Shown here: positions 13,801 through 36,348 of the stretch, piece after piece
Position numbering within the stretch: the first letter of the stretch is position 1
Layout: each line of letters begins with the position of its first letter
From: Terasakiella sp.
GTDB taxonomy: Bacteria; Pseudomonadota; Alphaproteobacteria; Rhodospirillales; Terasakiellaceae
Assembly (NCBI RefSeq): GCF_048571175.1
Contig: NZ_CP182348.1
Span: forward strand, 649,517-689,516
Direction of reading: 5' to 3'
Length of the DNA: 40,000 nucleotides
Made by a program: the position numbers and the translations under genes
The notes under the pieces: model-generated
The model's input: only the letters and a program-made list of their open reading frames with translations
Databases searched by the model: none
What the model was told of the DNA's origin: nothing

Positions 13801-14091
13801 ATGAATTGTCCTTCAACGAAGGACGGGCATGTCGTCATGCCTGAGGAAGAATTTGAGCAACTGCTTGAGTTGGCCGCTGAACGTGGTGCAAAGCGGGCAC
13901 TGGCGGATGTTGGTCTGGTCGATGAAGAAGCGGCTGGCGATATCCGTGATCTTCGCTCTCTACTCGGCGCTTTGCGTGTGGCCAAGCATACCGCCTGGTC
14001 GACCATTGTCCGTCTCGTCACCACAGGGGTGTTGATCGCCCTGATGGCGGGGGTGGCCATAAAACTTAAACTGTTTGGGGGAGGTCACTGA
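13801..14091 (+). CDS. Small C-terminally membrane-anchored protein of the lysis cassette
   Basis: 96 aa with a strong RBS (gaggaga). One C-terminal TM segment (VTTGVLIALMAGVAI). ATGA-type coupling to the endolysin gene. Confidence 0.4.
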   Translation: MNCPSTKDGHVVMPEEEFEQLLELAAERGAKRALADVGLVDEEAAGDIRDLRSLLGALRVAKHTAWSTIVRLVTTGVLIALMAGVAIKLKLFGGGH

Positions 14092-14486
14092 TGCCTGCGT
14101 TCTCTGAAAAATCCATTGCCAAGCTTTCTACCTGCCACCCGCTCTTGCAGCGGGTTTTTCGTGAGGTGGTGCGGGAATTTGACTGCACAATCCTCGAAGG
14201 GCATCGAGACAAAGACCGCCAAAACCAGATGGTTGCTGAAGGAAAAAGTCAAATTCGATGGCCGGGCGGGAAACACAATACTGTTCCGTCTTTAGCCGTT
14301 GATGTGACGCCTTATCCCATCAAATGGGACGATCGGGAACGACAGACGTTGTTCGCAGGTTATGTACTAGCCACCGCCAAATCCATGGGCGTGACTCTGC
14401 GCTGGGGCGGCGACTGGGACCGGGACACCGAGGTCCGAGATAACAGCTTCGATGACCTCGTTCACTTTGAGATCGTGGAGGGTTGA
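14091..14486 (+). CDS. M15-family metallopeptidase endolysin (VanY / L-Ala-D-Glu peptidase-like)
   Basis: Motifs GHRDKDRQNQM, SLAVDVTPYP and WGGDW...DLVHFE give the H..D...H zinc-ligand pattern of peptidase M15. Confidence 0.8.
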   Translation: MPAFSEKSIAKLSTCHPLLQRVFREVVREFDCTILEGHRDKDRQNQMVAEGKSQIRWPGGKHNTVPSLAVDVTPYPIKWDDRERQTLFAGYVLATAKSMGVTLRWGGDWDRDTEVRDNSFDDLVHFEIVEG

Positions 14487-14489
14487 GCC

Positions 14490-14900
14490 ATGCTGGATAA
14501 ATTGATCGGCGGAGGCCTTGTCACTGCCGCAGAGGGCGTTGCCAATATTATCGACCGCTTTGTTGAAACTGATGAAGAAAAACAGGCCGCCGAGATCATC
14601 AAGGCCAAGCTGATGATGAAACCCAGTCTGGCCCAGATTGAGCTCAACAAGGTTGAGGCAGGGCACCGTTCCATCTTCGTCGCTGGATGGCGGCCATTCA
14701 TCGGCTGGGTCTGTGGCTTAGCGCTTTTGTGGCACTTTATCCTGTTTGACCTGCTGACTTGGGTGACAGTGAATTTCTTCCCCCATGTATCCGAGTTGCC
14801 GGAGCTCACTGGGACGGAGACGCTGGTCACTGTGCTATTTTCCCTGCTTGGCTTGGGTGCCATGCGGACAGTTGAGAAGTTTGGGGGGCGAGCAAAATAA
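14490..14900 (+). CDS. Holin, 3-TM GTA-type
   Basis: 136 aa. The N-terminal amphipathic part (VANIIDRFVETDEEKQAAE), then AGWRPFIGWVCGLALLWHFILF and further TM segments, resemble the 3-TM holin family of GTAs and alphaproteobacterial phages. Confidence 0.6.
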   Translation: MLDKLIGGGLVTAAEGVANIIDRFVETDEEKQAAEIIKAKLMMKPSLAQIELNKVEAGHRSIFVAGWRPFIGWVCGLALLWHFILFDLLTWVTVNFFPHVSELPELTGTETLVTVLFSLLGLGAMRTVEKFGGRAK

Positions 14901-14903
14901 AAA

Positions 14904-15752
14904 TCAAAGATTGATAAACCAGTCAGGGTCGACAGATACTTTCTCGACAAGTTCTGTTTTTATGCCAAGAGCGAGTTCTTTTAGTTTGTCCGCTAATTGG
15001 TCTCCATCAACGAGATCGATTGGTGCTGCTCCATCTCTCGTGGCTTCGTCGATAGCTGCCTTTGTGAAACTTCCTGTTGTAATGAAGAGCCCCCGATCTG
15101 CTCTGCCGACAGTAGCTCCTCTGAAATCTCGTATTTCTGGGGCTCCGACCGAGCCCTTATATTTTTTGCACTGGAAAGCGATGTGAAAACTCATCAAGCC
15201 ATTGATGCGAGCAATTCCTTTCCCATCAATTCCGCCATCTCCTGTGCGACCTGTTACCTCCACATGAATAAAACCTGATTCACGGAGTAAACGCTGCGTC
15301 AGACGCTCAAACGAGTCTGGGCTGATTTCATTGATTAGGACCTGATGTAATTTCTCACGCCATGCAAGGGCTTCATCTGGTTGCTCCGAAGAGTCTTCAG
15401 GAGTGTTTTCTGGTTCATTGGAGGCAGATCCCTTGTCTAGGCACCTGACATAGGTCACGATTTCCTTGCTGTCGATAGTTTCTGATTTTTTAGCTTTTTC
15501 AGTTAAAGCCCAGACACCTCTTGATGAATTCTCAAGGTAGCCTGCCTTCTTGAGATAGGTTCGCGCCCACGCTAAACGATAGCCGATTTCTGTTTGGCTG
15601 CTTTTTTCTGGGTTATGAAGAACAGCAAGAGTCTCATCATCAAATTTTTCAAGCTCTATAACGGCTTCATAGATTTCATCAATACTGCCAGACCCTCCAA
15701 GGTTAACGAGTGCTTTCATCAATGGCAGCATAAGCTGGTCAAATGTGACCAT
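14904..15752 (-). CDS. mrr: Mrr-family type IV restriction endonuclease
   Basis: N-terminal winged-helix Mrr_N-like region and a C-terminal catalytic core (GDGGIDGKG...HIAFQCKKYKG). ATG at 15752 has GGAGG 7 nt upstream; the track start at 15773 is a TTG. Confidence 0.85.
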   Translation of the reverse strand: MVTFDQLMLPLMKALVNLGGSGSIDEIYEAVIELEKFDDETLAVLHNPEKSSQTEIGYRLAWARTYLKKAGYLENSSRGVWALTEKAKKSETIDSKEIVTYVRCLDKGSASNEPENTPEDSSEQPDEALAWREKLHQVLINEISPDSFERLTQRLLRESGFIHVEVTGRTGDGGIDGKGIARINGLMSFHIAFQCKKYKGSVGAPEIRDFRGATVGRADRGLFITTGSFTKAAIDEATRDGAAPIDLVDGDQLADKLKELALGIKTELVEKVSVDPDWFINL

Positions 15753-16893
15753 GATTTTGTCCTCCAAATTCAAGAGGAAGCAGGTTCAAAAGCTGATCCC
15801 CGATGTTAGTCGCCGTTTCATCTAAATTCACTGTGCAGAAATGGATAGGGTGCCCTTGAATTGACACCTGTTCAGATACAGTTTTGTCGATGGTCGGATG
15901 TAGAAGCATGCCGGAAGTGGTGAAAGAATTTTTCTTACCTGGAAATTCCTGGCTCCGAAGATATGTATAGATTTGGTATAGGTATCCGCTTCTTAGAGTT
16001 TCCTCACGAAACCAGCCCTTTGTCGTGATTGAGTTAAATTTAGTGTCAATTACGAGTCTTTCGCCAGTTTCCTTGTTTTCGATCGAAATGTCGGTTTTCA
16101 TGATCGGCAATATAGCGTCAATCCCGTTAGTTCTTTTGTCAATTTGCCAGAGGAGCTGTTCGCCGGATGACACTCGAAATTTTGAGCGATTGAGTCTGAT
16201 TGCATAAAACCCAGCGATAGCCTTTTCGAATAATTTACGTAACCAACGTATATCGGTTTCGGGCCTTAAAATATGGCGATCTCCAGACATCTGTGTTGGA
16301 AGCATTAGGTCAAAGGCTAAGTCAGCTGCGCTTAGCATTTTTTGGTCCTCAAAATCGCTTCGTCCCAACCGTTCGCTCTTGCTTGAGTATCCAGTCGGTT
16401 TCCCTTGAGTTACGCCCAAACGATCCATGCTGAAAGCTAATGATCGGCAGTGCTTCGACAATTGTTTTTGAGAGGTAATTTTTGCTAGTTGTTCTAAAGC
16501 TGCTCGAACATAACGGTTTCTGGGGGTGTTAGTGGTAAGTCTTTCAAACGTGCAAGAAACTTTGCCTTTTTCGAGAAGCCGATGACTTTCTGTGTAAAGC
16601 GAATTAATTCGCCCTCGTACTTGTCCAAGAATTGCGGTCTCTTGGGTATAGCCAAAGCTAAGATTTCGGATGAGGCGACGTTCCACTTGGTAGCACAATA
16701 CTTCTGCTACCAAATCAGCAATATCCTCGGGGTTCTCAGTCAATCTAGATTTGTCAGAACCGAGATGTCGAAACATGTCAGATGCATACAGAACTAAAAG
16801 CCAGATATTTCTTACCGGTATTCCGCCCAAAAGTTGCTGGCTTAGAGCTGTAGGATTTGTATCTGGCGCATCTAGTGAAGCTGTATCCATCAC
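15739..16893 (-). CDS. mcrC: McrC-like nuclease subunit of the McrBC system
   Basis: 384 aa directly coupled to mcrB (GTG 16893 or ATG 16890, overlapping the mcrB stop). C-terminal PD-(D/E)xK-like segment DISIENKETGERLVIDTKF. Confidence 0.8.
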   Translation of the reverse strand: MMDTASLDAPDTNPTALSQQLLGGIPVRNIWLLVLYASDMFRHLGSDKSRLTENPEDIADLVAEVLCYQVERRLIRNLSFGYTQETAILGQVRGRINSLYTESHRLLEKGKVSCTFERLTTNTPRNRYVRAALEQLAKITSQKQLSKHCRSLAFSMDRLGVTQGKPTGYSSKSERLGRSDFEDQKMLSAADLAFDLMLPTQMSGDRHILRPETDIRWLRKLFEKAIAGFYAIRLNRSKFRVSSGEQLLWQIDKRTNGIDAILPIMKTDISIENKETGERLVIDTKFNSITTKGWFREETLRSGYLYQIYTYLRSQEFPGKKNSFTTSGMLLHPTIDKTVSEQVSIQGHPIHFCTVNLDETATNIGDQLLNLLPLEFGGQNHGHI

Positions 16894-19310
16894 AGTCCTG
16901 CCAGTAACTTGCTCTTAGCACTCTGAGAGCGATCAAGATCGTCAAACCAATACTCGTCCAGAAGTGGGCCAATTTCCGTTTGGACAACATTTCGATACCA
17001 GTCTAAAGCGTCTGTAATTTTTGCATTGAAGGCAGGAGTCACATAGCTATGACCTATTTTAAATTGCGCCCCCAGATTTCGATCATTCTCAATTTCGGCA
17101 TTTAAAGAGATAAGGCGCTCTTCGATGTTCTGAAGCACCTCCATATCTATTCCTGATTTTTCGTGAACCCATTTTTTCCAGGGATCACCAAACGTGGGCT
17201 TAAGATCGATAAAAGCAAAACGCCTACGAAGAGCCAAATCGACTAGAGCGAGGGACCTGTCTGCCACATTCATTGTGCCGATGACATAGAGGTTATCAGG
17301 AACGAAAACACGTTCGGAATCACTTCGACGATAACTTAGCTCAAGAGCTTCTGCCGGTGTTCTTTTGTCAGCTTCAAGAAGGGTTAGCATTTCACCAAAA
17401 ATTTGTGCAGGGTTACCCCTGTTGATTTCTTCAATGACGACAACATGCTTATTGCCTGCATCCTTTTTAGCCTGATTGATCGTCTCTAAAAACGGGCCAT
17501 CCACAAGGTCTAATTTCCCTTCCCCAGCGGGCCTCCAGCCACGAACAAAATCTTCGTAAGAAAGGTTGGGGTGAAATTGAACTGCACGAATTTTGTTATC
17601 GCTTTTGTGACCGATAAGGGCGAAGGCTAACTTTTTGGCCAGCCAGGTTTTTCCCGTTCCCGGAGGGCCTTGTAGAATCAAATTTTTCTTGTTTCTTAAG
17701 CGTTCCAAAATTGCGGCTAAGTTATCTTTTTCTAGAAAGCAGCCATCTTTGATAATGTCATCCAATGTATAGGGCTCGATAGGAGCGACCGCTGGCTCTG
17801 ATTCATCCTCTGTTTCATGTTCCAAGTCAGGGTCAGTTGCATTGGGGTGCGCGGAAGTGCCTGTGTCTTTGTATAGCCATGCAGCGAGAGAGAGTTCTGG
17901 AAACGAGTGAACAGGATACGCATCTTCCAGAAAGCGCAGCTCAAGTTCGTCTAGAATTGCCAAGTAGTCTTTTCCTGAGCACCTACGCTTCGGGCCGTTT
18001 TTACCAATTTCGATTCCGAGCTTTTTCTCAATATATAGCTGTGATTGACCATCAAGCGTGGGGAAATTCCATGGGCGTACCCAATAAAGGCCCATCGATA
18101 AATTCCAGCCAACGCCGTATTGTTGAGAAACAATGCCATAGCCCGAAAGGAATTCATCTCTGGCATCAGCGTCATCTTTATCCGCGAAATTTAGGGCTTT
18201 TTCAAAAAAGTCCCAAAGCCTCTCGATGTCGCCGTCTTCTCTCCTGTCTTCAAAACCGAAAAACCAGGACTTTTGATTGTTCAGGATTGGTATCCCTTCA
18301 AATGAGTCCGGAACTGGTTCTTTAACGTCCAAAAAGTCAGCTAGTTCTTTTGCGATGGCTTTTCTATTTTCATCAGTAATTCCCCTGTTGAATGTTCCCA
18401 TGGTGGTAAAGGGACAAATGTCTGTTTGACCTTTATCCTTGATGTAGGACAGGTCTAGTTTTTCGGCCAATTCGTTGATGAATTTAATAAGGCCTCTTCG
18501 GTCGTCTTTGTGTTTTAAAAGCGCTTGACCGATCGCTTCATAAAACTTGGTCCAGTGGAAACGTTTTGTTTCTACTGGCGTATCACCAAATCTTTCTTGC
18601 CAGAATGGTGCATTTCTAAAGCGGTCTAATTCCTGAGGTATATCATTGAACGTAAAATCAATGAGGCCTTTTGCCTCCCACCGATCAGGGGTTAAACGCC
18701 AAATCGTGCTTCTGTTTGTATAAAAATACCATTCCCGTGGTGTTTCATATTTAGGCGACCAGTCCACATCAACGGTTTGGCCATCACCATGGTTTTTGGT
18801 GATGACACCGATGACTTTGATACCCATTGCAGAAACGGATTGGCCTCCATTATCGAATGGCAGGTTGTGCTTGCGTGTGTACGACGATTTAATAGCAATG
18901 AGGTCGCCAGTTTTCATTGAGCGCACCACATCAAGATATTTATTGTCATAACCGTTTTGCCAGATCCCTTCCTCTATGAAGCTGTCTGTTTGATCTTCGG
19001 CTGCCTTGCCCCACGAAGCTCCCACGAACCAATATGATTTTGGGTTTGTGCTTGCCATTTTTGCTTTGGCAAGGATTGCATCTGTAATAACCCCTGCTAG
19101 TGGCAATTCGCTTTTGTCCATAATTGCTCTGATTTTAAGCTTGAGCTCAGCTTGGATGTCACTTTTTAAATGCCAATCAGTGTACGACTGGATCTTGTCA
19201 ACGACTTGAGCAACATCGTTTGTGACCGTGGCCAAATGGGATGCCTCTAGCTCCACCTTTTGTGAAGCTGCCTGTTCTAAAATGATTTTTCTTATATCTT
19301 CGGTCTTCAT
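16890..19310 (-). CDS. mcrB: McrB-family AAA+ GTPase with a ~540-aa N-terminal extension
   Basis: Walker A LILQGPPGTGKTW (about 17645-17668). McrB signature VVVIEEINRGNPAQIFGEMLTLLE and YVIGTMNVADRSLALVDLALRRRFAF. The N-terminus contains a PUA/EVE-like stretch (YWFVGASWG...KTGDLIAIKSS...IKVIGVI). Confidence 0.9.
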   Translation of the reverse strand: MKTEDIRKIILEQAASQKVELEASHLATVTNDVAQVVDKIQSYTDWHLKSDIQAELKLKIRAIMDKSELPLAGVITDAILAKAKMASTNPKSYWFVGASWGKAAEDQTDSFIEEGIWQNGYDNKYLDVVRSMKTGDLIAIKSSYTRKHNLPFDNGGQSVSAMGIKVIGVITKNHGDGQTVDVDWSPKYETPREWYFYTNRSTIWRLTPDRWEAKGLIDFTFNDIPQELDRFRNAPFWQERFGDTPVETKRFHWTKFYEAIGQALLKHKDDRRGLIKFINELAEKLDLSYIKDKGQTDICPFTTMGTFNRGITDENRKAIAKELADFLDVKEPVPDSFEGIPILNNQKSWFFGFEDRREDGDIERLWDFFEKALNFADKDDADARDEFLSGYGIVSQQYGVGWNLSMGLYWVRPWNFPTLDGQSQLYIEKKLGIEIGKNGPKRRCSGKDYLAILDELELRFLEDAYPVHSFPELSLAAWLYKDTGTSAHPNATDPDLEHETEDESEPAVAPIEPYTLDDIIKDGCFLEKDNLAAILERLRNKKNLILQGPPGTGKTWLAKKLAFALIGHKSDNKIRAVQFHPNLSYEDFVRGWRPAGEGKLDLVDGPFLETINQAKKDAGNKHVVVIEEINRGNPAQIFGEMLTLLEADKRTPAEALELSYRRSDSERVFVPDNLYVIGTMNVADRSLALVDLALRRRFAFIDLKPTFGDPWKKWVHEKSGIDMEVLQNIEERLISLNAEIENDRNLGAQFKIGHSYVTPAFNAKITDALDWYRNVVQTEIGPLLDEYWFDDLDRSQSAKSKLLAGL

Positions 19311-19349
19311 GACGGATTTCCAGTGTCAGCATACATTCAAGAATTTGGG

Positions 19350-22300
19350 CTATCGGGTCCAGGAGTTGGAGAGCGTTTCGGCTTGCTTTAAGACCAGCTC
19401 AACAGCTTCGGCTGCTTTGTCAGGCGGGTACTTCCACCTCTGAAGAGTCCGTCGGACAAGTATCTTGAGCTTTGCCCGGACACTGTCACGAACCTGCCAG
19501 TCTACGGTTGTTGATTTCCTGAGTTTCTCAGTGATTTCAACGGCGATTTTTTTAAGGATTTCATCACCGAGCTCGCGTACTGCACTCTCATTGTTGGCTA
19601 AGGCATCGTAGAATGCGACTTCATCAGGATTAAGGCCGAGTTCTGCTTCTCGAGCCATCTCCTCCTGAAACTCTTTCGCCATTTGAATAAGTTCTTCGAT
19701 CACTTGCGCCGTCTCAATGGCACGGTTGTGATATTTTCGAAGAGTTTCTTGCAGGCGGTCGGCAAACTTCTTTTCTTGCACGACATTGTTTCTGGTTTTT
19801 GCCTTGATGTCGTCTTTGAGAAGTTTCTCCAATAGTTCGACGGCAAGGTTTTTGTGGGGCATCTGCCGCACGTCTTCCAGAAACTCTTCAGACAAAAGGC
19901 CGATATTCGGTTTGTCTAGACCGCAGAGTGCAAAAACGTCAGCTACGCCCTCAGCAACAACAGCATTATCCAGAATTTGCTTTAATGCAGAATTCTTCTC
20001 TTCTTCAGTGCGCTTCTTGTCAACCGTTGTGAATTTGCTGATTGCAGCTTTGATGGCGCTATAAAAAGCGATTTCTTTTCTGAGATCTTTTGCTTCATCC
20101 AGTGTGCTGCTGAGTGAGTAAGCCTTGTTTGTTGCTAGTACTAAATCTAGGAAGCGCTTTTTGCCGTCCTCTATCCCAAGAAGGTAGTTCGCGGCAGGCA
20201 CCAGAAGTTTATGCGCATCCGTTTCAAAAGCAGACAAATCAAGACCGGGAGCCTGAGGTGTTTTGGCAAACATCCCTCTGATAGCATCCAGCTTTTCCAA
20301 TAATATGGCGAAGGCTTCCGCCGCGTTTAGGGTCGGTTGACCTTTTCCCTTGGCATCGGTGTAGGTTTTTAGAGCCTGCTTGAGTTCGTTGGCAATGCCG
20401 ATATAGTCGACGACAAGGCCGCCCGGTTTATTCTTGAAGACACGGTTCACCCGAGCGATCGCCTGCATCAAGTTATGCCCCTTCATGGGCTTGTCGACAT
20501 ACATTGTATGGCAGCATGGGGCATCAAAACCAGTTAGCCACATATCGCGGACGATCACGATTTTGAGCGGATCGTCTAGGTCCTTGAAACGTCTCTCAAG
20601 GCGTTTCTTGGTTTTCTTGTTGTAGATGTGTGGCTGCAGTAGTGCCTTGTCCGATGCCGATCCGGTCATCACGATTTTTATCGCGCCCTTTTCTGGATCG
20701 TCATCATGCCAATCTGGGCGAAGGTCAATAATTTCATTATAAAGATGAGCACAGATGTCACGGCTCATGGCGACAATCATTGCCTTACCGTCCATAGTGG
20801 CATTACGAGATTCAAAATGCTGCACAATATCGGTGGCAATTTCTTTGAGGCGAGGGGTTGAGCCTACCAGCTTTTCAAGGCGGCTCCATTCACCTTTGGT
20901 TTTTTCCCTGTTCCCGACATCTTCGTCATCTTCAATTACTTCGTCGACCTGATCGGACAGTGCCGCTATATCATCTCGGTTAAGGTCAAGTTTTGCCAGT
21001 CGAGACTCATAGTAAATTGGCACTGTCGCACCGTCGTCAACGGCATCTTGAATGTCGTAGATGGAGACGTAGTCACCAAAGACGGATCGGGTGTCTTTGT
21101 CTTCTTGCGAAATGGGGGTGCCGGTAAAGCCAATGAATGATGCATTTGGTATGGCATCACGCATATGCTTGGCATATCCGAATTTATAGCTTCCATCTTT
21201 GGTGAGGACAGCTTTAAGGCCATATTGGCTTCGGTGGGCTTCATCCGATATTACCACAATGTTGTGGCGGTCATTTAGAATGGGGTGAGTGTTCTCGTCA
21301 TCCAGAACCGCAAATTTCTGAACTGTTGTAAAGATAATGCCACCGGAGCTTCGTTCACTTAGTAGGTCACGCAGTGTATCCCGATCGTCAGCCTGAACCG
21401 GTGTTTGCTTCAAAAGCTCTTGGGCGTTGCTGAAGGTCGCAAAAAGCTGGCCGTCCAGGTCGTTTCGGTCGGTCACAATGATAAGCGTTGGGTTGTTCAT
21501 CGCAGGTTGCTGTAGGAGTTTCCCTGCGTAACAACACATGGAAATGCTTTTGCCAGACCCTTGCGTGTGCCAAACAACACCAGCCTTTTTATTTCCCCCT
21601 TCATGAGATGCTTCAATGGTTGCGGCGACAGCTTCGCGCACGGCATGGAATTGGTGGTAACCAGCTATTTTCTTTATGATTTTCTCGCCGTCTGTCTCAA
21701 ATAGAATGAAGAAACGGACATAGTCTAGAAACAATTCACGATCGAAGAAGCCCCTTACCATTGTTTCCAATTGCCATTCCAGTAAGGGCTTGTCGTCTTC
21801 ATCTTTAATCGTGCGCCACGGCATGAAGCGTTCTTGGTTGGCTGTCAGGGAGCCTACACGAGCTGTGTAGCCGTCGCTGATGATCAAAGCTTCATTAAAG
21901 ATAAAGAGGTCAGAGATTTCTTCTTTGTAGGTCTGTATCTGATTGAAGGCATCCCAGATATCGGCGTTTTCGTCTGAGGGGCTTTTTAATTCCAAAACGG
22001 CGATGGGCAGGCCATTAATAAAGCAAACAATATCCGGCCTGCGCGGCTGTTTGGTGCCGCTTACGGTAAATTGGTTGATGGCTTGAAAACGATTTGCAGC
22101 GATATTTTCAAAATCAATGAGAAACGCATGGTCGTGGACGGGTTTGTCCCCGTCTTTAAAATCAACCGGAATGCCGCTTAGCAGAAGGCGGTGGAAGGCT
22201 CGGTTATTTGTAATGAGATCAAGGCTTTCTGCGTGGCGAAGCTTCGCAAGTACCTGCTCTAAGCAGATAGAGATGGCTTCGCTCGGGATATGTTTGTTAA

Positions 22301-22463
22301 TTGCCGGGAAAACAGCGGTGAGCTGGTCCGTCAGCAGAACATCAGAATAATTGCCGCGTGCCGGATTGGCTCCATCAGGCGCGATGTCAGGGCCGTGAAC
22401 GACTTCCCAGCCAGTTTCCTTGAACCAATCAAGGCAGAGGTTTTCTAGTTGTTCTTCATTCAT
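19350..22463 (-). CDS. hsdR: Type I restriction enzyme R subunit
   Basis: 1037 aa. Motifs WHTQGSGKS (Walker A), ISDEAHRSQ (DEAH), typical N-terminus [14 protein letters not shown] and C-terminal helical tail. Confidence 0.95.
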
Positions 22464-23323
22464 TGTTCACCTCTTAATTCTGCCTGCTCAGTGCGGACCT
22501 CGTTCGAAATCAATTCGTTGCAATGAAGGGAAGAACCGGTCAGGTCGGGATATAAATTTGCAAAATGCAGGTTCATTCTGCGTAGCGCCATTAAACAATC
22601 TTGACGCTCATCTTTCGTTTCAATTGGGATATGAAGTTTGAAAATGTAATCTTTAAGGACGAGAGGGTCGTCCACATCGACTTCGTTTTCAGCCAGAGTG
22701 TTAATGATTGTGGTTTCGAGGCTTGTTTCACCGCTGGGGGACAGGGTGAATAAGCCATCTTGACTGATTAAACGGTCATGATCGCTGCTCAGTGGATTAA
22801 CAAAGAGGTCATGAGGAAAAAACGTTTCAAGGTTGCTTTTGTTCAAGCCGAATATGGCACGGCTATAGTTCTTTGGCTTCTCATGCTTTGGATCTTCCTC
22901 GTGCATGGCGAAAAACATGGCGACAAACGGGGAGTGAGACCAATCGAGAAGGGGTGTCCACAGGCCATAATGTTGACCCAGGGCCCATATGTCATCGGCA
23001 CTACCCATCTGAGAGACGGGAATTTTAGTTCTGCCGCGAATAGAGTATTTGAAATTCTCTAAATGGCGTTCGGCCCAGTCTTCTTGGTAGGTCCCCGCTT
23101 CTGTCATGCGGGCGATACTAGGTGTTAAGCCCCAAGATGCATTCCTTTGTCCGCGAAACAGCATTTCGCATGATGAGGACGCAATCTTTCCTGCGTTTGT
23201 AAGTTGCAGAAATTCTTCCCAATTCTTCAAACGGGCCACAGGGATGTTGCCATCCACTTTATCGCCGTGGATGACGAAATCGGGCCACTTAGGAGATTTC
23301 AGGAAGGGTTTCCGTCTAGTCAT
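22460..23323 (-). CDS. FRG-domain protein embedded in the type I operon
   Basis: Motifs [38 protein letters not shown] and [12 protein letters not shown] at 23323 overlaps the hsdS stop by 8 nt, and its stop forms ATGA with the hsdR start. Confidence 0.8.
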
Positions 23324-24695
23324 CAGCAAGCCCCTCCAAATCGATTTCTCCCGACAGGAGCTTGGGTAAAAGCGTGTCCCGGAGCGATTTTAGCGTTTCC
23401 TGCTCGACCAAATTGCTTTCAATGTTGTCAAGGTATGGAGCGGTCACGCTGCAGAATAGAGCTTGGATCTCTTCAGAAGGAACACAATACTTCAGTTTTT
23501 CCATATCTTTGCGAGTTACATGACCTAGGCCAGTGGTCTGCTTGTTTTTCGCTATCGCAATGAAAACAGGCTTTAGATGTTTAAGAAGCCAAAATGTGGA
23601 GTTCCGTTGGGCAGGCTCAGAGTTGACCACTTTGAAAATGTGCTGATTCAGCCAAGCTTCACCGCCAACCCAAATAAAGGTGTCAATTGAAGTCTCTGGA
23701 CTGCCCGACCAGGAAAATAATATATCTCCGGTGTCGAGTTTGAATTTGTCTCCAAGGTCTGTGTTCGTAAATTTTGTATTTCCGGTAATTCCACTTTTAA
23801 GTTCCGCAATTTTGATCACGGGCTTTGCATCAGGATCAGAAGAAAAATGCATATTTTTATATGCGGCACCGTTAATGAATTCAGCAGAATTGATCACAGC
23901 TTCAGTTGTCCAACCCTCGGGGATCGGGCCAAGTTCACTGTCTGCCAAAGCTGCTGGAAAGAGTGCGGCAGTAGCTTGGAGCTTAGCATAAGCTTCTGGT
24001 TGGTCAGCTGCCATCGCATCTAATGCGGCGCTGTCTTTGCCAGAAATGGCTGTCATCGCGGCGCGTTCGGCTTCGTCTTCTGTGCCGCCTGCTTCGAGAA
24101 CTTTAATTTTTGCCTTGGTTGGCTCAAAATCCACAAACCAGCTTTTGAAAATCGCTTGCGCCATTTCCTCCAGCGTTCTGTTGATCTGGTTGTTGATTTC
24201 GATTTTGTCGTCGAGCGCCTTTAAGTGGTCGCCAATTTTTCTTTGAACATTTGGGCTAGGTATATAGGCTCTGTATTGTGTGATTGCAGTTTTATCACCG
24301 CGTGGCATTTTAGCGCCTTTTGATGTCTGATCTGTGTAATCGACAAAGTGCTTGTTGCTCAGCAGGTAATATAAAAATGTAGGCAATACATTTTTTTTAT
24401 CTTTGGATCGAAAAATTAAAACATCTGGTGAAGCGCCGCCTTCAAAGCTTGCATGCCACACTTTGCGAAAGTATGTGCGAATGTTTGAAAATAATGTGTC
24501 GCCAACTTGGAAGTGATTAAATTTTGAAGCGGCCGGTAATTTAGACGCCTTTTCGACTCCTCCACGATCCACGATCATATTGTCGGTGGAAATATAAGTA
24601 TTTTCATCTACCTCATCGGCGGAAATTTTATCGCTGATTAGGTCAATAATATTGCCTAATTCATGCGTTGTGTTGAAATCAAAGTCAGCAGTCAT
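23316..24695 (-). CDS. hsdS: Type I restriction enzyme specificity subunit (two TRDs)
   Basis: Central conserved helix TLEEMAQAIFKSWFVDFEP and C-terminal LKSLRDTLLPKLLSGEI. ATG at 24695 overlaps the hsdM stop by 11 nt; the track start at 24752 lies inside hsdM. Confidence 0.9.
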   Translation of the reverse strand: MTADFDFNTTHELGNIIDLISDKISADEVDENTYISTDNMIVDRGGVEKASKLPAASKFNHFQVGDTLFSNIRTYFRKVWHASFEGGASPDVLIFRSKDKKNVLPTFLYYLLSNKHFVDYTDQTSKGAKMPRGDKTAITQYRAYIPSPNVQRKIGDHLKALDDKIEINNQINRTLEEMAQAIFKSWFVDFEPTKAKIKVLEAGGTEDEAERAAMTAISGKDSAALDAMAADQPEAYAKLQATAALFPAALADSELGPIPEGWTTEAVINSAEFINGAAYKNMHFSSDPDAKPVIKIAELKSGITGNTKFTNTDLGDKFKLDTGDILFSWSGSPETSIDTFIWVGGEAWLNQHIFKVVNSEPAQRNSTFWLLKHLKPVFIAIAKNKQTTGLGHVTRKDMEKLKYCVPSEEIQALFCSVTAPYLDNIESNLVEQETLKSLRDTLLPKLLSGEIDLEGLADD

Positions 24696-26415
24696 AACCC
24701 AACCCCGCCAAGTTAGATTTGATCTCATTCTCCAACGCTTCGGCTGTTTCAAACTGGGATGAAAGTTCAGCCGATAGACGGGTCATCTTTTCTGTAAACG
24801 GTTCTGTATCTTCTTCACCGTCAACGGCACCGACGTAACGACCGGGTGTAAGCACAAAGTCGTGCTTGTCCATGTCTGCTAATTCGGCAGAGAAACAAAA
24901 GCCTTTTTCATCCGCATAATCAGTGCCTGTTTTCCAAGCATGGAAGGTCCCAGCAATCTTTGCGATGTCTTTATTCGTAAAATCACGCAGCACCCGGTCT
25001 TTCATGAAGCCGATATTTCGAGCGTCGATGAAGAGTGTTTTGCCGCTGCGATCTCGTTTTCCATTGCCGCCCTTTTTGTTTTTGGTTAGGAACCAGATAC
25101 AGGCTGGAATTTGTGTGTTAGTGAAGAGTTGGCCTGGCAAAGCAACCATACATTCTACGAGATCGTTTTGGATGAGAGCCTTACGAATAACGCCTTCGTT
25201 GTTGGTGTTGCTGCTCATAGACCCATTTGCGAGTAAGAGTGCCATAGAGCCATTGTTGTTCAGATGATGCAGCATATGAAGAATCCACGCGAAATTTGCA
25301 TTGCCTGCAGGCGGTGTTTCATACCCTTTCCAGCGCACATCATCTTCAAGGCTGGCATGCCACCAGTCTTTGATGTTGAAAGGCGGGTTGGCCATCACAA
25401 AGTCGGCGCGAAGATCTGGATGCTGATCATCTAAAAAGCTATCAGCGTTTTTCTTGCCGAAATTAAAATCGATCCCGCGAATAGCCATGTTCATGGCAGC
25501 CAATTTCCAGGTGGTTGGATTGCTTTCCTGACCGTAAACCGAGATATGTTTCTTCTGCTCCTGAGCGTTGTAATGCTTTTCCGCAGCATGGGCTTCGATG
25601 AATTTATCATTCGAGACGAAGAAGCCCCCCGCACCCATGGCAGGGTCGTAGACGCGGCCTTTATATGGCTCGAGCATTTCTACAATCAGGGTAACAACGC
25701 TTTTCGGTGTGTAATACTGCCCACCCTGTTTTCCTTCCGCGAGGGCGAATTGCCCGAGGAAATATTCGTAGACGTGACCGAGAATGTCTTTGCTGTGCAG
25801 GTCCAGCTTTTCCCCTTCAAATTCCGGATTGCTGAAGCTGGTATCCGAGAATTTGTTGATGAGCTCTGTAAGGTTATGGTTATCCACCTGATATTGACTA
25901 ATGCGTGGAAGGACATTTTTTAGTTTTGGGTTGGCTGGCTTATCGCCAATCTTATAAGTCTCAATGGCTTCAAGCGCATTGTCGATCAGCTTTGAAATAG
26001 ACGTTAGCTTGATGTCTTTGCCGCTCTCGTCTTGTCCGATAACGGAACCAATGGGCTGGGCAGCCGTTGTTTTCAGGAAGTCCCAGCGTGATTGTTTGGG
26101 CACCCAAAAAACATTCTTTTCCTGATAATACTCGTGAAGTTCCAACTCGGCGCTGACGGCTTCTTCGTATTCTTCGTCGCTGCCATAATCGTCACGCGGC
26201 ATGAAGTAGATGTTGTCGTCGCTGTCATCTTCCGTGAATAATTTGCGAAGCTCATTGCGGCGTTCTTCGAATGCATCAGATACATACTTTAAGAAGATGA
26301 GCCCTAGCACCACATGTTTGTAGTTGGCGGCATCCAGGTTGTTGCGCAAACGATCGGCAGCTTTCCACAGTTTGTCGTCGAGCTCTTTTAAGAATTTTTG
26401 TTCTGCTGATTTCAT
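24685..26415 (-). CDS. hsdM: Type I restriction enzyme N6-adenine methyltransferase subunit
   Basis: AdoMet motif YDPAMGAGGFF, catalytic NPPF (FVMANPPFNIKDW), and an HsdM N-terminal domain (LWKAADRLRNNLDAANYKHVVLGLIFLKY). Confidence 0.95.
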   Translation of the reverse strand: MKSAEQKFLKELDDKLWKAADRLRNNLDAANYKHVVLGLIFLKYVSDAFEERRNELRKLFTEDDSDDNIYFMPRDDYGSDEEYEEAVSAELELHEYYQEKNVFWVPKQSRWDFLKTTAAQPIGSVIGQDESGKDIKLTSISKLIDNALEAIETYKIGDKPANPKLKNVLPRISQYQVDNHNLTELINKFSDTSFSNPEFEGEKLDLHSKDILGHVYEYFLGQFALAEGKQGGQYYTPKSVVTLIVEMLEPYKGRVYDPAMGAGGFFVSNDKFIEAHAAEKHYNAQEQKKHISVYGQESNPTTWKLAAMNMAIRGIDFNFGKKNADSFLDDQHPDLRADFVMANPPFNIKDWWHASLEDDVRWKGYETPPAGNANFAWILHMLHHLNNNGSMALLLANGSMSSNTNNEGVIRKALIQNDLVECMVALPGQLFTNTQIPACIWFLTKNKKGGNGKRDRSGKTLFIDARNIGFMKDRVLRDFTNKDIAKIAGTFHAWKTGTDYADEKGFCFSAELADMDKHDFVLTPGRYVGAVDGEEDTEPFTEKMTRLSAELSSQFETAEALENEIKSNLAGLGYDC

Positions 26416-26428
26416 CTTTTTCTCTCAT

Positions 26429-27364
26429 TCACGCATTGCTGACGTCAGTCAGGAACTGTTGGTTGTGATGGCTGGTATACCCTGGTGCAATCGCAAGGTT
26501 TTCAACGCCGTAAAGGGTTGGGGTGTTCTTCAGCCACAGATGATACTCTGGACCGGCTAGTTTATGGTCTTCGGTGCAGTCCACATTCCACTTACGGAGA
26601 AGGTAGCCAGCAACGGCGGCTCGAACCTCTACATTGAGCAGGTTGTCAGACATGCCATATTCAAGGCTAATGGCTTCCGGGTGTTTAAGGGCAGGATGCG
26701 GAACGATATGCATCTCAACAATTCGGTTCCACTGTTTGTCCGCGTCTTTTATTTCATGAGGCAATATCAATACGTTCTTTGCAAGTTTAACGCTGGCGAT
26801 CCTGTTAATTACAAAATCAGAAAAGCGCTCTCTTGCACGGTCAAACCCACGCACATGCCAGCGAAGACCATTATCGACCAGTGCGAAAGGGACTATCTCG
26901 CGTTTTGAATTGCCGCTTGATATGGATAGGTAGGTGATTTCAAGGGGAACCTTGTTGTGGATTGCCCTAGTGATGGCAGCCAGAATATCAATATTGGGAA
27001 AATTCAGCTCTGTTGGAGCTTCGGCGGGAACCAGTGAGCATTCCGGGCTGACAAAATCATCCCCATAGCCATGAAGAAGGGCTGCAAGTGTCTGGCTCCC
27101 CGAATATTCGAAAAGGGGTCTGAAACCGTCACGCTGGATATAGGTTTTTACTTTTGTGTCATATTCGATGTTTTTAGGGGTTAAGTCTTTGTATTGGGAA
27201 AGGTCGCGTGAGGCTGCGGCTTCCTTGATCCCGAATCGCTCGACCAAATCAGATCTATTAACTGAGCCTAGGAAATAGAGTTTGAAGTCGATATGAAACA
27301 GTCGCTCCTGCTGTGCTTGGCTGATTTCGGCCAGTTTTGCTTGGATGTCATCCCCTGCAGACAT
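26429..27364 (-). CDS. wHTH-WYL transcriptional regulator (BrxR/CapW-like)
   Basis: ATG at 27364 with GGGGAGA upstream. N-terminus ERLFHIDFKLYFLGSVNRSDLVERFGIKEAAASRDLSQYKDL and WYL core REIVPFALVDNGLRWHVRGFDRARERFSDFVINRI. Its stop lies 13 bp before the hsdM start. Confidence 0.7.
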   Translation of the reverse strand: MSAGDDIQAKLAEISQAQQERLFHIDFKLYFLGSVNRSDLVERFGIKEAAASRDLSQYKDLTPKNIEYDTKVKTYIQRDGFRPLFEYSGSQTLAALLHGYGDDFVSPECSLVPAEAPTELNFPNIDILAAITRAIHNKVPLEITYLSISSGNSKREIVPFALVDNGLRWHVRGFDRARERFSDFVINRIASVKLAKNVLILPHEIKDADKQWNRIVEMHIVPHPALKHPEAISLEYGMSDNLLNVEVRAAVAGYLLRKWNVDCTEDHKLAGPEYHLWLKNTPTLYGVENLAIAPGYTSHHNQQFLTDVSNA

Positions 27365-27501
27365 TTTTCTCCCCAGTTTTATAGCGTGCCAGTTGCGGCT
27401 ATAAAGTAGCGTATAGGGATATATGGTATTTATATATGTGTCAATATGATAACCACTAAGGGTGTTGGTGTCCGATGTTTTTACCCTTGCTCTTTTCTGA
27501 A

Positions 27502-27539
27502 AGGGACGTGCCAATTTGGCGGCAGACTGGCACGTCCCT
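27502..27539. repeat. Perfect 12-bp inverted repeat AGGGACGTGCCA-N14-TGGCACGTCCCT
   Basis: Read directly, 140-175 bp upstream of the WYL regulator start. There is no proper T-tract on either strand, so it looks more like an operator than a terminator. Confidence 0.6.
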
Positions 27540-27711
27540 AACTCGCAAAGCTGATTGCCTATCAATCAACCTTTCGACCAGCAATAAGGTGCTAGTCTTG
27601 GTGGGCCCAGAGCGGGATCGCCGCCATCCCCACCTCCGTCCTTGATCCGCCCCTCACGACGGCGTCTCCGACGGTCCCCGCGCTTATCGGGTCCGGGTCC
27701 CCTTGGATGCG

Positions 27712-28617
27712 TCACTCGCGCTCAAGGTCACGGGTGTCAGCGCCAACTGCATCCATTACTGATCGAAGCTCGCCGAACATTGAGCCATGATGGCGATCCA
27801 GATAGTCGGCGATGGTTTCATTTTTCAGAAGTTTTGATAGGTAACCTTTGGCGACGACCAATGTAAACATTGTGTCTCCAAGCGTGTCTTCGACATTTCG
27901 GTATTCTTGTTGCAGGCGTTCCATTTCCCGCTCCATCCGTGCAATATCCTCAGGCGAAACGCCTTTGAGCATGTTTTTCTTTTCTGGTTTCACGAGCTTG
28001 TCCGGGGGCATTCCGGCCAAAAGAACCTTGGCATAAGTGACGGTGTATCGGTTTGCGGACATCATCATTTCGCAAGCCTCGATCTGGGCCATTGGCTTCA
28101 TCTTTCGGAGAATGCCGAACACCTGTACACTCACCATTTTTTCCTTCAGAAGTTCGACGGCCTCTGGCGCAATGTTTCGGAGCATGTTTTGGCGCTCACG
28201 AATGCGCTTTACGTCCACGTCCAAAGCTTCCGCGATTCTTTCTTGAGAAACGCCACGTTCAATCGCTTTGACGATCATATTGTGCTCCTGCACAGCACTA
28301 AGGCGGTTCACACGCCGATTGTATGTAAAGCTCTCATCGTCCGTTGAGACCAGGCAGATGGCTTCTGTTTCTCCAAGCTGCTTCAGGGCTTCTAAGCGGA
28401 GGTGCCCATCCAGCAGGATATAGTTTTTATTCTTTCCGGATCCTGAGTCAGGAAAAACCGCCAACGGTTCAATGATCCCCACGTCTTTAACAGAAGCCAG
28501 GATAGTTCGATATTTGCGTGTCCGGTGAAGCCCCTGTGAGAGAGGCCTAGTTGGTGCGATACGGTCAAGAGGGACCTGGATCGTGTCATCCAGAAATCCC
28601 TTGGTGATGGTGGTCAT
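27712..28617 (-). CDS. ParB/Srx N-terminal domain protein with RepB-C-like C-terminus (paralog B)
   Basis: Motifs IIEPLAVF...YILLDGHLRLEAL, an HTH (VSQERIAEALDVDVKRIRERQNML), and an ATGA overlap with the upstream paralog. Confidence 0.7.
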   Translation of the reverse strand: MTTITKGFLDDTIQVPLDRIAPTRPLSQGLHRTRKYRTILASVKDVGIIEPLAVFPDSGSGKNKNYILLDGHLRLEALKQLGETEAICLVSTDDESFTYNRRVNRLSAVQEHNMIVKAIERGVSQERIAEALDVDVKRIRERQNMLRNIAPEAVELLKEKMVSVQVFGILRKMKPMAQIEACEMMMSANRYTVTYAKVLLAGMPPDKLVKPEKKNMLKGVSPEDIARMEREMERLQQEYRNVEDTLGDTMFTLVVAKGYLSKLLKNETIADYLDRHHGSMFGELRSVMDAVGADTRDLERE

Positions 28618-29480
28618 GGATGCAACCTCTCTGCAAGAGGTTGCGGCATGTCGCTGTATCCTTCCGCTCGAAGGAGCGTTCGAAAATGCTCATCCGCCAA
28701 GAGACGACGTAGTGCCGAGATCAGAAACAAAAGGCGCTGCTCGTTAACGTCAGCCTTCTTGATCAACAGTTTCTGGCGGTTGACTTCATCTTGATAGGTT
28801 TGAACCAGCTTGCGGGTTGAAAAGGGCTTGTCTGTTCTTCTTGAATGGGTGCGATAGCGTTTACCCATGAAGCGACGGCGCTCGATTATGCGACGCACTT
28901 TGATGAGCTGATCTCCACGCAAGGCCCCGCTTTCATATGCTTCGGTCAGGCCTTTCTGTAATTCGTTTTCGCTGCTGCGCGAAATTTCAACGGCCATGCT
29001 AAGCGGGATTACGTTCTTTTCTACTGCAGCAATGAGCCGTTCTTCTCCTTCTTTCAGTAGGTGAGAGATGCCACGAACGTAAGTCACGTCCAAGTCTGTT
29101 TTCTTGGCGATTTCCCGGGCGTTATAGCCACGTTCCTCAAGATCCTTTATCCCATGGAGAAGATCCATATTGGTGTGTTGGCGACGAGCTATGTTTTCAA
29201 TCAGGCTCATCAGGTAGCAGTCTTGCTCTGACGCCTTGATGACCATTGCAGGAATTTCCGTCTCGCCGAGTGCCTGGTATGCCTCAACGCGGCCCTGTCC
29301 GCATACCAAGTCATACCCATTCCGTGATGGGGTGACGGTAATAGGCCTTTTCAGTCCAATCGAAGCGATATTATCGACGATACCTGCGAAGACTTTCTTA
29401 TTTCGCACACGCGGATTGATCACCCTTATTTGGTCAATCGGGATCATTTGAATAGAGGGTGAAACCGGTTGGCTTTGCAT
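28614..29480 (-). CDS. ParB/Srx N-terminal domain protein with HTH (paralog A)
   Basis: Motifs IPIDQIRVINPRVRN, YDLVCGQGRVEAYQALG, and an HTH (YNAREIAKKTDLDVTYVRGISHL). Its start ATG shares 1 nt with the recombinase stop (TAATG). Confidence 0.7.
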   Translation of the reverse strand: MQSQPVSPSIQMIPIDQIRVINPRVRNKKVFAGIVDNIASIGLKRPITVTPSRNGYDLVCGQGRVEAYQALGETEIPAMVIKASEQDCYLMSLIENIARRQHTNMDLLHGIKDLEERGYNAREIAKKTDLDVTYVRGISHLLKEGEERLIAAVEKNVIPLSMAVEISRSSENELQKGLTEAYESGALRGDQLIKVRRIIERRRFMGKRYRTHSRRTDKPFSTRKLVQTYQDEVNRQKLLIKKADVNEQRLLFLISALRRLLADEHFRTLLRAEGYSDMPQPLAERLHP

Positions 29481-32945: not shown

Positions 32946-33133
32946 TTAATCCCTGGAATCATAGTGGAATCATGAGGGCTGGTTTCGGCGAGCAACCGAT
33001 CGAATGACAGCGTAAAGCGATGTCTGAATTAGTCCAGTAATATCAATTGGTTATAGTGTTTCTGCGAAATCTTTAGAAATGGCCATATCACGGCTCATAA
33101 TCTGAGAGCAGTAGAACGAAATCCTGCGCATCA
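32946..33133 (+). repeat. Attachment-site-like block A: arm repeats plus a decayed tRNA 3-prime-half-like core
   Basis: Homologous to block B. 32946-32979 matches 36137-36170 at 28/34. 33055-33091 matches 36182-36218 at 29/37. The core 33092-33133 starts with the ggctcataa-ctga anticodon-loop sequence. TGGAATCA occurs twice, 11 bp apart (32954, 32965). Confidence 0.55.
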
Positions 33134-36292: not shown

Positions 36293-36339
36293 GGCTCATA
36301 ACCTGAAGGTCGTCAGTTCAAATCTGGCCCCCGCAACCA
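36293..36339 (+). other. 3-prime half of an initiator-like tRNA-Met(CAT), from anticodon loop to CCA; probable attR core
   Basis: ggCTCATAAcctgaaggtcgtcagTTCAAATctggcccccgcaACCA matches the E. coli tRNA-fMet 3-prime half nearly base for base, with compensatory T-stem changes. No complementary 5-prime acceptor strand (tgcgggg) lies upstream. Confidence 0.7.
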
Positions 36340-36348
36340 AAAACTAAA

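Follow-up and report, generated by a model that had tools for sequence, protein, structure and literature searches.

The window analysed here is a stretch of 40,000 nucleotides from Terasakiella sp. (NCBI RefSeq assembly GCF_048571175.1, contig NZ_CP182348.1, positions 649,517 to 689,516 of the forward strand; coordinates below are those of the window). Its minus strand carries, at 14904-27364, eight intact co-directional genes encoding a BrxR-type regulator, a type I restriction-modification (RM) system, an FRG-domain protein, McrBC and Mrr. These genes probably form one operon-like, horizontally acquired defence cassette that is carried as prophage cargo. A foreign origin is indicated by the GC content, which is 44-48% in the cassette against 53-60% in the prophage backbone of the left part of the window, and by the fact that the block was not found in the 10 congeners searched. 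Taken one by one the parts of the cluster are ordinary; what is unusual is that they make up a hard-wired, mobile, prophage-borne block, with an optional regulator and with a docking-type module common to its proteins. In the literature searched there was no description of a fixed M-S-X-R-B-C(-Mrr) block (hsdM, hsdS, a further gene X, hsdR, mcrB and mcrC), or of an HsdR-like tail on McrB and FRG proteins.

A conserved block of coupled genes

Eight long open reading frames (ORFs) are found on the minus strand of 14904-27565, with starts chosen by the presence of ribosome-binding sites. The first gene, brxR (26429..27364, 311 aa), has an ATG start with GGGGAGAAAA upstream, and is followed after 13 nt by hsdM (24685..26415, 576 aa). 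Overlaps of 11 nt and 8 nt then join hsdM to hsdS (23316..24695, 459 aa) and hsdS to the FRG gene (22460..23323, 287 aa), which in turn shares an ATGA overlap with hsdR (19350..22463, 1037 aa). Beyond a 39-nt gap lie mcrB (16890..19310, 806 aa), mcrC (15739..16890, 383 aa), joined to mcrB by a GTGATG overlap of 1 or 4 nt, and mrr (14904..15752, 282 aa), which overlaps mcrC by 14 nt and stops 3 nt from the stop of a convergent phage holin gene. A sequence-only reading of this DNA had given the same order, strand and junctions, and the co-orientation and coupling that it described are real features of the ORFs. The Teredinibacter version of the block has the same 11-nt hsdM/hsdS and 14-nt mcrC/mrr overlaps and an hsdR-mcrB gap of about 40-46 nt; the arrangement is thus conserved and not a chance juxtaposition.

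The reading frames of hsdR and mcrB are the same, only 13 codons apart. A read-through HsdR-McrB fusion is nevertheless ruled out, as TAG and TGA stops stand within 19311-19349 and the gap in other loci (40-115 nt) is not always a multiple of three. No conserved element was found when the hsdR-mcrB gap was compared across loci.

The design recurs. A scan for McrB in one genome per species gave 80 loci, and look-ups of close homologues added more. The order in the window, brxR-M-S-FRG-R-B-C-mrr, has counterparts in Teredinibacter (L085; brxR-M-S-X-RhuM-R-B-C-mrr), Alkalimarinus (L173; brxR-M-S-SIR2-R-B-C-mrr) and Hahella (L002; brxR-M-S-X-R-B-C-mrr). Cycloclasticus (L001) has a small helix-turn-helix gene, without brxR, ahead of M-S-FRG-R-B-C-mrr, and in Kistimonas (L003) M-S-X-R-B-C is followed by the first 49 codons only of mrr. 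Shorter versions are M-DUF1016-S-SIR2-R-B-C (L086) and M-DUF1016-S-FRG(with tail)-X-R-B-C (L087) in V. cholerae, M-S-AAA_15-X-R-B-C in Endozoicomonas (L088) and M-S-FRG-R-B-C on a metagenome contig (L174). The constant core is therefore M, S, R, B and C, with hsdR and mcrB adjacent, while brxR, mrr and the gene in the slot between hsdS and hsdR vary. This slot holds FRG, SIR2, RhuM, AAA_15/21, GmrSD_N or DSPc genes, which are typical abortive-infection effectors. Since the block occurs without BrxR in Cycloclasticus, V. cholerae and the metagenome contig, control by a WYL protein is no inherent part of it. The window's HsdR and Mrr have 82-83% identity to the gammaproteobacterial copies. The host is an alphaproteobacterium, as its full CcrM orthologue and its rRNA-tRNA-fMet gene arrangement also indicate, and this points to transfer of the block between bacterial classes.

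The gene families named in the sequence-only reading were borne out by Pfam, PADLOC and NCBIfam, and the catalytic motifs are intact. The type I RM system consists of adjacent genes for HsdM (HsdM_N and N6_Mtase, 362 bits; NPPF at residue 343), HsdS (Methylase_S in two stretches, that is, two target-recognition domains; PADLOC Specificity_I, 300 bits) and HsdR. The last contains the Pfam domains HSDR_N, SWI2_SNF2, T1R_D3-like and T1RH-like_C, scores 1201 bits with PADLOC REase_I and 644 bits with TIGR00348, and retains the motifs D..ELK, GSGKS and DEAH; the nearest solved structure is EcoR124I HsdR (E 1e-35), with a match confined to the motor domain. McrBC is a type IV system, in which a GTPase with Walker A and B motifs stands next to a PD-(D/E)xK nuclease, McrC. 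The AAA+ GTPase of McrB (506-803) matches residues 160-456 of E. coli McrB (E 5.5e-73) and Pfam AAA_5, with GPPGTGKT and EEINR intact, and McrC matches PF10117 and NF007277 (372.8 bits, cut-off 338), with an intact D..DTK motif. Mrr is a type IV endonuclease with winged-helix Mrr_N and Mrr_cat domains (Pfam, 74 and 108 bits; PADLOC mREase_IV) and a D..QCK motif, of the form D..QxK, with QCK at residue 194. In four other loci (L004, L006, L009 and L011) an Mrr_cat-like gene, 35-38% identical to residues 132-281 of the window's Mrr, lies directly upstream of a short-form mcrB, and there is no mrr downstream.

The FRG protein matches PF08867 (84 bits) and PADLOC PDC-S15 (PDLC04934, 305 bits). It holds the sequence FRGQR, an (F/Y)RG motif of which R57 and G58 are invariant in 42 homologues, and in all seven FRG loci (the window, L001, L087, L170, L171, L172 and L174) its gene lies between hsdS and hsdR. 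The FRG family has been placed in the ADP-ribosyltransferase (ART) superfamily, as a possible NADase effector, by the Aravind group (PMC9503650), and the product is predicted to be an ART-superfamily NADase-type effector. An AlphaFold2 (AF2) model of it (predicted local distance difference test score, pLDDT, 87) gave no match below E 0.3 in the PDB; the ART proteins EcPltA and Arr were weak matches. The protein shows no homology to PrrC/RloC (ABC ATPase plus anticodon nuclease); as its matches are to FRG/PDC-S15 only, it may act like PrrC without belonging to that family. Judging from its position, it might be held latent by the RM complex and activated when that complex is inhibited, as PrrC is.

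The head gene had been called a BrxR/CapW-type regulator, and it proves to be a genuine member of that family. Its product matches E. fergusonii BrxR (PDB 7QFZ) over residues 10-297 of 311 (E 4.1e-94), as well as CapW and Acinetobacter BrxR, and is about 50% identical in tblastn to closely related plasmid BrxR genes. It is full length, with the three-domain architecture of winged helix-turn-helix, WYL and WCX; it contains Pfam WYL, and its orthologues carry WHD_BrxR, WYL and BrxR_CTD. The RWHVR motif, within LRWHVRGF, is present; in CapW this motif contacts single-stranded DNA (PMC9122601, PMC9122589, PMC11662680). An association of BrxR with adjoining type I and type IV restriction has been published (PMC9122601): among the neighbours of BrxR, Picton et al. 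found type IV restriction at 17.6% and type I restriction at 16.2%.

Upstream of brxR, also on the minus strand, lies a promoter box, TGGTTATCATATTGACAC (27438..27455), which contains the -35 element TTGACA at 27439-27444. In an alignment of the window with Teredinibacter and Hahella this 18-nt box, TGGTyATCATrTTGACrC, is near-invariant. Just past the putative -10 is a palindrome, GCTACTTTATAGC (27398..27410, minus strand), near which there is an 8-bp arm, GCTATAAA, at 27378-27385. CTAC-containing palindromes occupy the same position in Teredinibacter (GACTACTAATCAGTC) and Hahella (CCTACTATCTAGTTGG), about 30 nt downstream of TTGACA in each locus. The proven operator of BrxR on the E. fergusonii plasmid pEFER, GAAACCTACTG-N5-CAGTAGGTTGC, lies between promoter and brxR (PMC9122601), the same relative place as that of the window palindrome, which is thus a candidate BrxR operator. 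A GC-rich hairpin at 27502..27539 (minus strand; 17-nt arms, 88% complementary), between the ParB-like gene and the brxR promoter, was also considered for this role. The lack of a counterpart ahead of brxR in Teredinibacter and Hahella led to its rejection; more probably it closes the ParB/recombinase unit that lies upstream, or marks the border of the cargo.

A different account of the locus is that type I, McrBC and Mrr genes, each with their own promoters, are independent neighbours that have accreted in a defence island, where BrxR controls itself and perhaps hsdMS. The same families do act independently in E. coli K-12 (PMC12707154), and Mrr and BrxR are each missing from some versions of the block. 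This account is nonetheless unlikely. In every version hsdR and mcrB stay next to each other, even though hsdS, the embedded gene, brxR and mrr are exchanged, the mcrB/mcrC and mcrC/mrr codon overlaps are conserved, and HsdR and McrB have a tail in common. Promoter-like sites are not enriched either (11 against 20.8 ± 5 in shuffles), though in a consensus scan that is itself uninformative; terminator-like sites were at the shuffle level in the same scan. Some features do weigh against a single regulated cassette. The 39-nt gap ahead of mcrB, with its weak ribosome-binding site, could hold an internal start, as independent neighbours would require. Control of the distal genes by BrxR is an assumption, because brxR is missing from several otherwise identical blocks, and the -10 of the window's brxR promoter, TATCCC at a 17-nt spacing, is weak. 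The biochemical role given to FRG, moreover, comes from a published sequence-profile analysis, and the fold search was not significant.

If the genes do act as a single cassette, BrxR, bound to the palindrome just after its own promoter, would keep a long brxR-to-mrr transcript low, until single-stranded DNA arising from damage or infection frees it, as is the case for CapW. The type I enzyme would then cut DNA without its N6-methyladenine (m6A) mark, while the EVE-domain McrBC and Mrr would cut foreign-modified, probably cytosine-modified, DNA that evades the type I enzyme. FRG, which takes the slot that PrrC has in EcoprrI, might serve as a back-up NAD-consuming or ADP-ribosylating effector that fires when the type I enzyme is blocked. 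In this way the cassette may shield the lysogen from other phages, to the benefit of the prophage.

A tail common to HsdR, McrB and some FRG proteins

McrB is made up of four parts: a tail (1-86), an EVE/YTH-like barrel (93-206), a helical DUF8425 region (211-480) and the GTPase (506-803). The first three can be told apart in an AF2 model of residues 1-505 (pLDDT 84), where residues 3-86 form four helices, 93-206 a beta barrel and 211-480 a helical region. In Foldseek the best matches of the barrel were EVE proteins (PH1033, Rpa0253 and THYN1; PDB 1wmm, 2hd9, 2gbs and 3eop), together with YTH domains; the multidomain query makes the E-values weak. The E. coli-type reader of 5-methylcytosine, McrB-N, appears to be replaced, there being no sequence match between the window's McrB and residues 1-159 of E. 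coli McrB. Orthologues of the window's McrB carry Pfam DUF8425 and McrB_lid.

The tail, encoded at 19053..19310 (minus strand), is homologous to the C-terminal tail of HsdR. Residues 20-86 or so align with the last ~70 residues of HsdR (about 964-1031) in hhalign (96.7%, E 3.8e-10, 66 columns), and the first 86 residues match positions 249-323 of Pfam T1RH-like_C. Hidden Markov models built from McrB tails and from HsdR C-termini cross-match in both directions, and the two share the motif TDW-x2-(K/R)-x4-AELK. By BLASTP the tail matches the window's own HsdR weakly (E 0.004), so that it is the profile methods that convince. The four helices are confidently folded in the AF2 model (pLDDT about 90). 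Run against 1.84 billion proteins, the tail profile returned mostly McrB fragments and HsdR C-termini, the latter being the only other family found, plus a few odd fusions that are possible assembly chimeras. The search confirms the homology, and gives no clean list of further tail-bearing effectors. Three proteins, P0344 (487 aa), P0391 (519 aa) and P0307 (358 aa), combine an Abi_C, a relaxase or an FKBP domain with a T1RH-like_C region; these may be additional carriers of the tail, or chimeras that arose in assembly.

Possession of the tail goes with the position of the gene. Each of the 13 McrBs with a tail is preceded, at a distance of 39-115 nt, by an hsdR of the T1RH-like_C type. The tail is missing from all 66 short-form McrBs, and for the 51 of these that have 3.2 kb or more of sequence ahead of the gene, no hsdR lies within 800 nt. 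Two short forms (L047 and L055) have an hsdR at 0.8-1.05 kb. In the first of these (L047:3-3756), hsdR is followed by a gene for a 243-aa protein and then by a gene for an 816-aa McrB without the tail. In this McrB a winged helix resembling Mrr_N is inserted ahead of the GTPase, and it is the sole type I-linked McrB without a tail that was seen. The same tail is found at the C-terminus of FRG in three other loci (L087, L170 and L171), but is absent from the FRG protein of the window.

The C-terminal helical domain of HsdR has been proposed as a contact with the methylase (PMC5248579; also, to judge by its title, Grinkevich 2018, cited in PMC11411939). It is conceivable that the last ~70 residues of HsdR are a portable docking module, and that McrB, which has it at the N-terminus, and FRG, which in other genomes has it at the C-terminus, use it to attach to the type I methylase core. 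If so, the tail would dock McrB, and elsewhere FRG, on the M2S methylase at the site of HsdR, and a single sequence-recognition hub would serve or gate several effectors; the type I and type IV systems would in that case make up, with an abortive-infection effector, one physically integrated machine, or a guard circuit round one hub. Alternatively, McrBC and FRG might sense anti-restriction proteins that hit the M2S hub. The homology, the predicted fold, the strict association of the tail with a preceding hsdR and the recurrent fusion of the tail to FRG all speak for a coupling of this kind. It is held here only tentatively, because a single ancient fusion inherited with the block would yield the same pattern, the 13 loci representing perhaps two or three lineages. 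In addition, no other part of McrB is as poorly conserved as the tail (30-36% identity, where the whole protein has 67-71%), and the exceptions in L047 and in the window's own FRG stand against the proposed docking.

The prophage setting

The cassette is flanked on both sides by phage backbone genes, assigned by Pfam. To its left, on the plus strand, lie a DUF6127 gene, an endolysin-like gene and the holin gene (13801..14900). To its right, on the minus strand, are two ParB/RepB-like genes (27712-28617 and 28614-29480) and a large serine recombinase gene (29480-31057), and the cluster thus sits between lysis genes and a ParB-ParB-serine recombinase-tyrosine integrase module. DNA homology to close phage relatives in IMG/VR ends at 14900-14903, at the stop of the holin gene. 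In six more distant relatives of the phage (L118, L120, L132, L134, L146 and L167) the ParB2-ParB1(-SerRec) module, with homologues of the window's two ParB-like genes, follows directly on the lysis genes and starts only 1.3-1.7 kb beyond the tail gene. A serine recombinase comes next in the four that reach far enough (L120, L132, L134 and L146), followed in L120 by a tyrosine integrase with 64% identity, and in L119 a partial ParB2 is found at the same distance from the tail gene. As the tail gene and ParB are 13.9 kb apart in the window, the cluster fills a variable slot of the phage, one in which relatives hold nothing or other defence genes.

The contents of this slot in two other relatives are worth recording. 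In L103 (13830-22289), a closer relative, the holin gene is followed, in the same place and orientation, by a different type I system, in which an AAA_15/21 ATPase gene is embedded along with two genes of no assigned function; in L155 (13565-16542) a gene for a UvrD-like helicase comes after the holin gene. For this group of phages, the position after the holin gene seems to be a hotspot of defence genes. On a metagenome contig from the JGI (L175:199-5832), long mcrB, mcrC and mrr genes, with 71%, 63% and 81% identity to those of the window, share a 12-nt overlap with lysozyme/DUF6127 lysis genes. The phage there is a P2-like myophage, and so the same topology is found on a different kind of phage.

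Taken as a whole, the region is a place where mobile elements have piled up at a single tRNA. A tRNA-Met gene lies 31.5 kb to the left of the window, at window -31585..-31509 (G000:C1:617932-618008), downstream of the tRNA-Ile and tRNA-Ala of an rRNA operon. An exact repeat of its 3' 47 nt stands at 36294-36340, 68 kb away, which marks the ~68 kb as an integrated mosaic; there is also a degenerate copy at 33091-33124. Between the tRNA-Met gene and the prophage there are two ORFs of 471 aa with the same first 30 residues (window -28386..-26971 and -24495..-23080), probably copies of an insertion sequence, and a 470-aa DDE transposase is encoded at 36676-38088.

It might be supposed instead that the cassette is not cargo, but a chromosomal island beside which a prophage integrated by chance, next to mrr. 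The GC content of the cassette is that of the host genome (3.78 Mb, 47% GC), and several IMG/VR relatives end exactly at the holin gene. Such a coincidence seems quite improbable. A search for an att-like (attachment-site) repeat at the holin/mrr junction found none, and the one pair of exact att repeats encloses the region as a whole. The two ParB genes, the serine recombinase and the tyrosine integrase on the far side are phage backbone in related proviruses, other defence genes occupy the same slot in relatives, and in the P2-like phage of L175 mrr likewise abuts the lysis genes. The reading as prophage cargo has its own difficulty in that cargo and backbone are about 10 GC points apart and that the borders of IMG/VR proviruses may follow gene calls; the status of the cassette as cargo consequently rests on synteny, not on an excision product.

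Host methylation and comparison with known systems

The sequence-only reading had raised a question of self-compatibility, namely that the m6A mark of the type I system must not be a target of McrBC or Mrr. That the systems must coexist still stands as an issue, but it is better framed as one between Mrr and CcrM. The host has a full CcrM orthologue (6PBD, E 2e-165), which makes m6A at GANTC. CcrM is one of three N6/N4 methylases in the host genome, another being in the prophage, and no C5-cytosine methylase was found when one was sought there. McrBC directed at cytosine modification would be harmless. E. coli Mrr is sensitised by G6mANTC (PMC12707154), and as this is the CcrM mark, the Mrr of the window must either have another specificity or be kept at a low level, for which BrxR may be responsible.

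Two type I methylases are present in the host, the second hsdM being at 3.53 Mb. It lies about 6 kb from a further N6/N4 methylase (G000:C1:3528506-3535992), in what is probably another defence island. Within the prophage itself, a 475-aa ORF at G000:C1:640905-642329 (window about -8600..-7200) encodes a fusion of ParB-N and an N6/N4 DNA methyltransferase, which would add a mark that the type IV enzymes of the cassette must tolerate.

The closest parallel for the regulator is the island of E. fergusonii pEFER (BREX plus BrxU; for the BrxR/CapW family see PMC9122601, PMC9122589, PMC9122588 and PMC11662680). In both loci a full-length BrxR gene lies a few nt before the first defence gene, a palindrome stands between promoter and brxR, and a modification-blocked system is paired with a modification-dependent one in one island. 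They differ in what is placed under the regulator, which is BREX and GmrSD in pEFER and type I RM, FRG, McrBC and Mrr in the window, and in the sequence of the operator. The pEFER island is plasmid-borne whereas that of the window is prophage cargo, with a predicted regulation.

A likeness to the immigration control region of E. coli K-12 (PMC12707154) had also been proposed. It holds for gene content: hsdRMS, mcrBC and mrr kinds lie side by side in both, so that a type I system that marks DNA with m6A is placed beside two modification-dependent nucleases. It does not extend to organisation. The K-12 genes form several transcription units of mixed orientation with fixed chromosomal anchors, whereas those of the window are co-directional, coupled and mobile, a hard-wired prophage cassette. 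The K-12 region is without a WYL regulator and an embedded effector, and its McrB has an SRA-like reader and no HsdR-like tail.

Genes embedded in type I operons are known from PrrC, from TgvAB (PMC11411939) and from 'guilt by embedding' (Payne 2024, bioRxiv 10.1101/2024.01.29.577857). In EcoprrI-PrrC, where an anticodon nuclease is found in a type IC hsd locus, an extra defence gene lies between hsdS and hsdR, as in the window. In VPI-2 of V. cholerae the type IV system TgvAB is wired into a type I operon against modified phages (PMC11411939), much as type I and type IV systems are paired here. The content of the slot is hypervariable in such loci and in blocks like that of the window. The FRG protein of the window is, however, unrelated to PrrC or TgvAB, and McrBC comes after hsdR while TgvAB lies inside the type I operon. 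A tail shared by HsdR, McrB and FRG was not described in the literature searched on these systems. Fusions of EVE/YTH domains to McrB have been published (Bell, Wolf and Koonin 2020; T. gammatolerans YTH-McrB, cited in PMC12707154). In these, as in the McrB of the window, a PUA-like barrel replaces the E. coli reader before the AAA+ GTPase, and McrC is adjacent. The family of the window's McrB adds the helical DUF8425 region of ~270 residues, and its type I-linked subset adds the HsdR-like tail.

Defence islands are usually seen as loose neighbourhoods. Here one coupled block, made up of a type I system with a variable suicide effector, McrBC and Mrr, moves between bacterial classes and on phages, and two of the accessory proteins have a copy of the HsdR tail that is proposed to bind the methylase. 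If this tail docks, there would be a concrete mechanism, open to testing, by which modification-blocked and modification-dependent restriction could act in synergy or guard one another, and it would explain why the genes stay linked. The locus also offers a natural system in which to study the control of possibly self-toxic nucleases by BrxR, the use that a prophage makes of its cargo, and the presence of an Mrr homologue alongside CcrM methylation.

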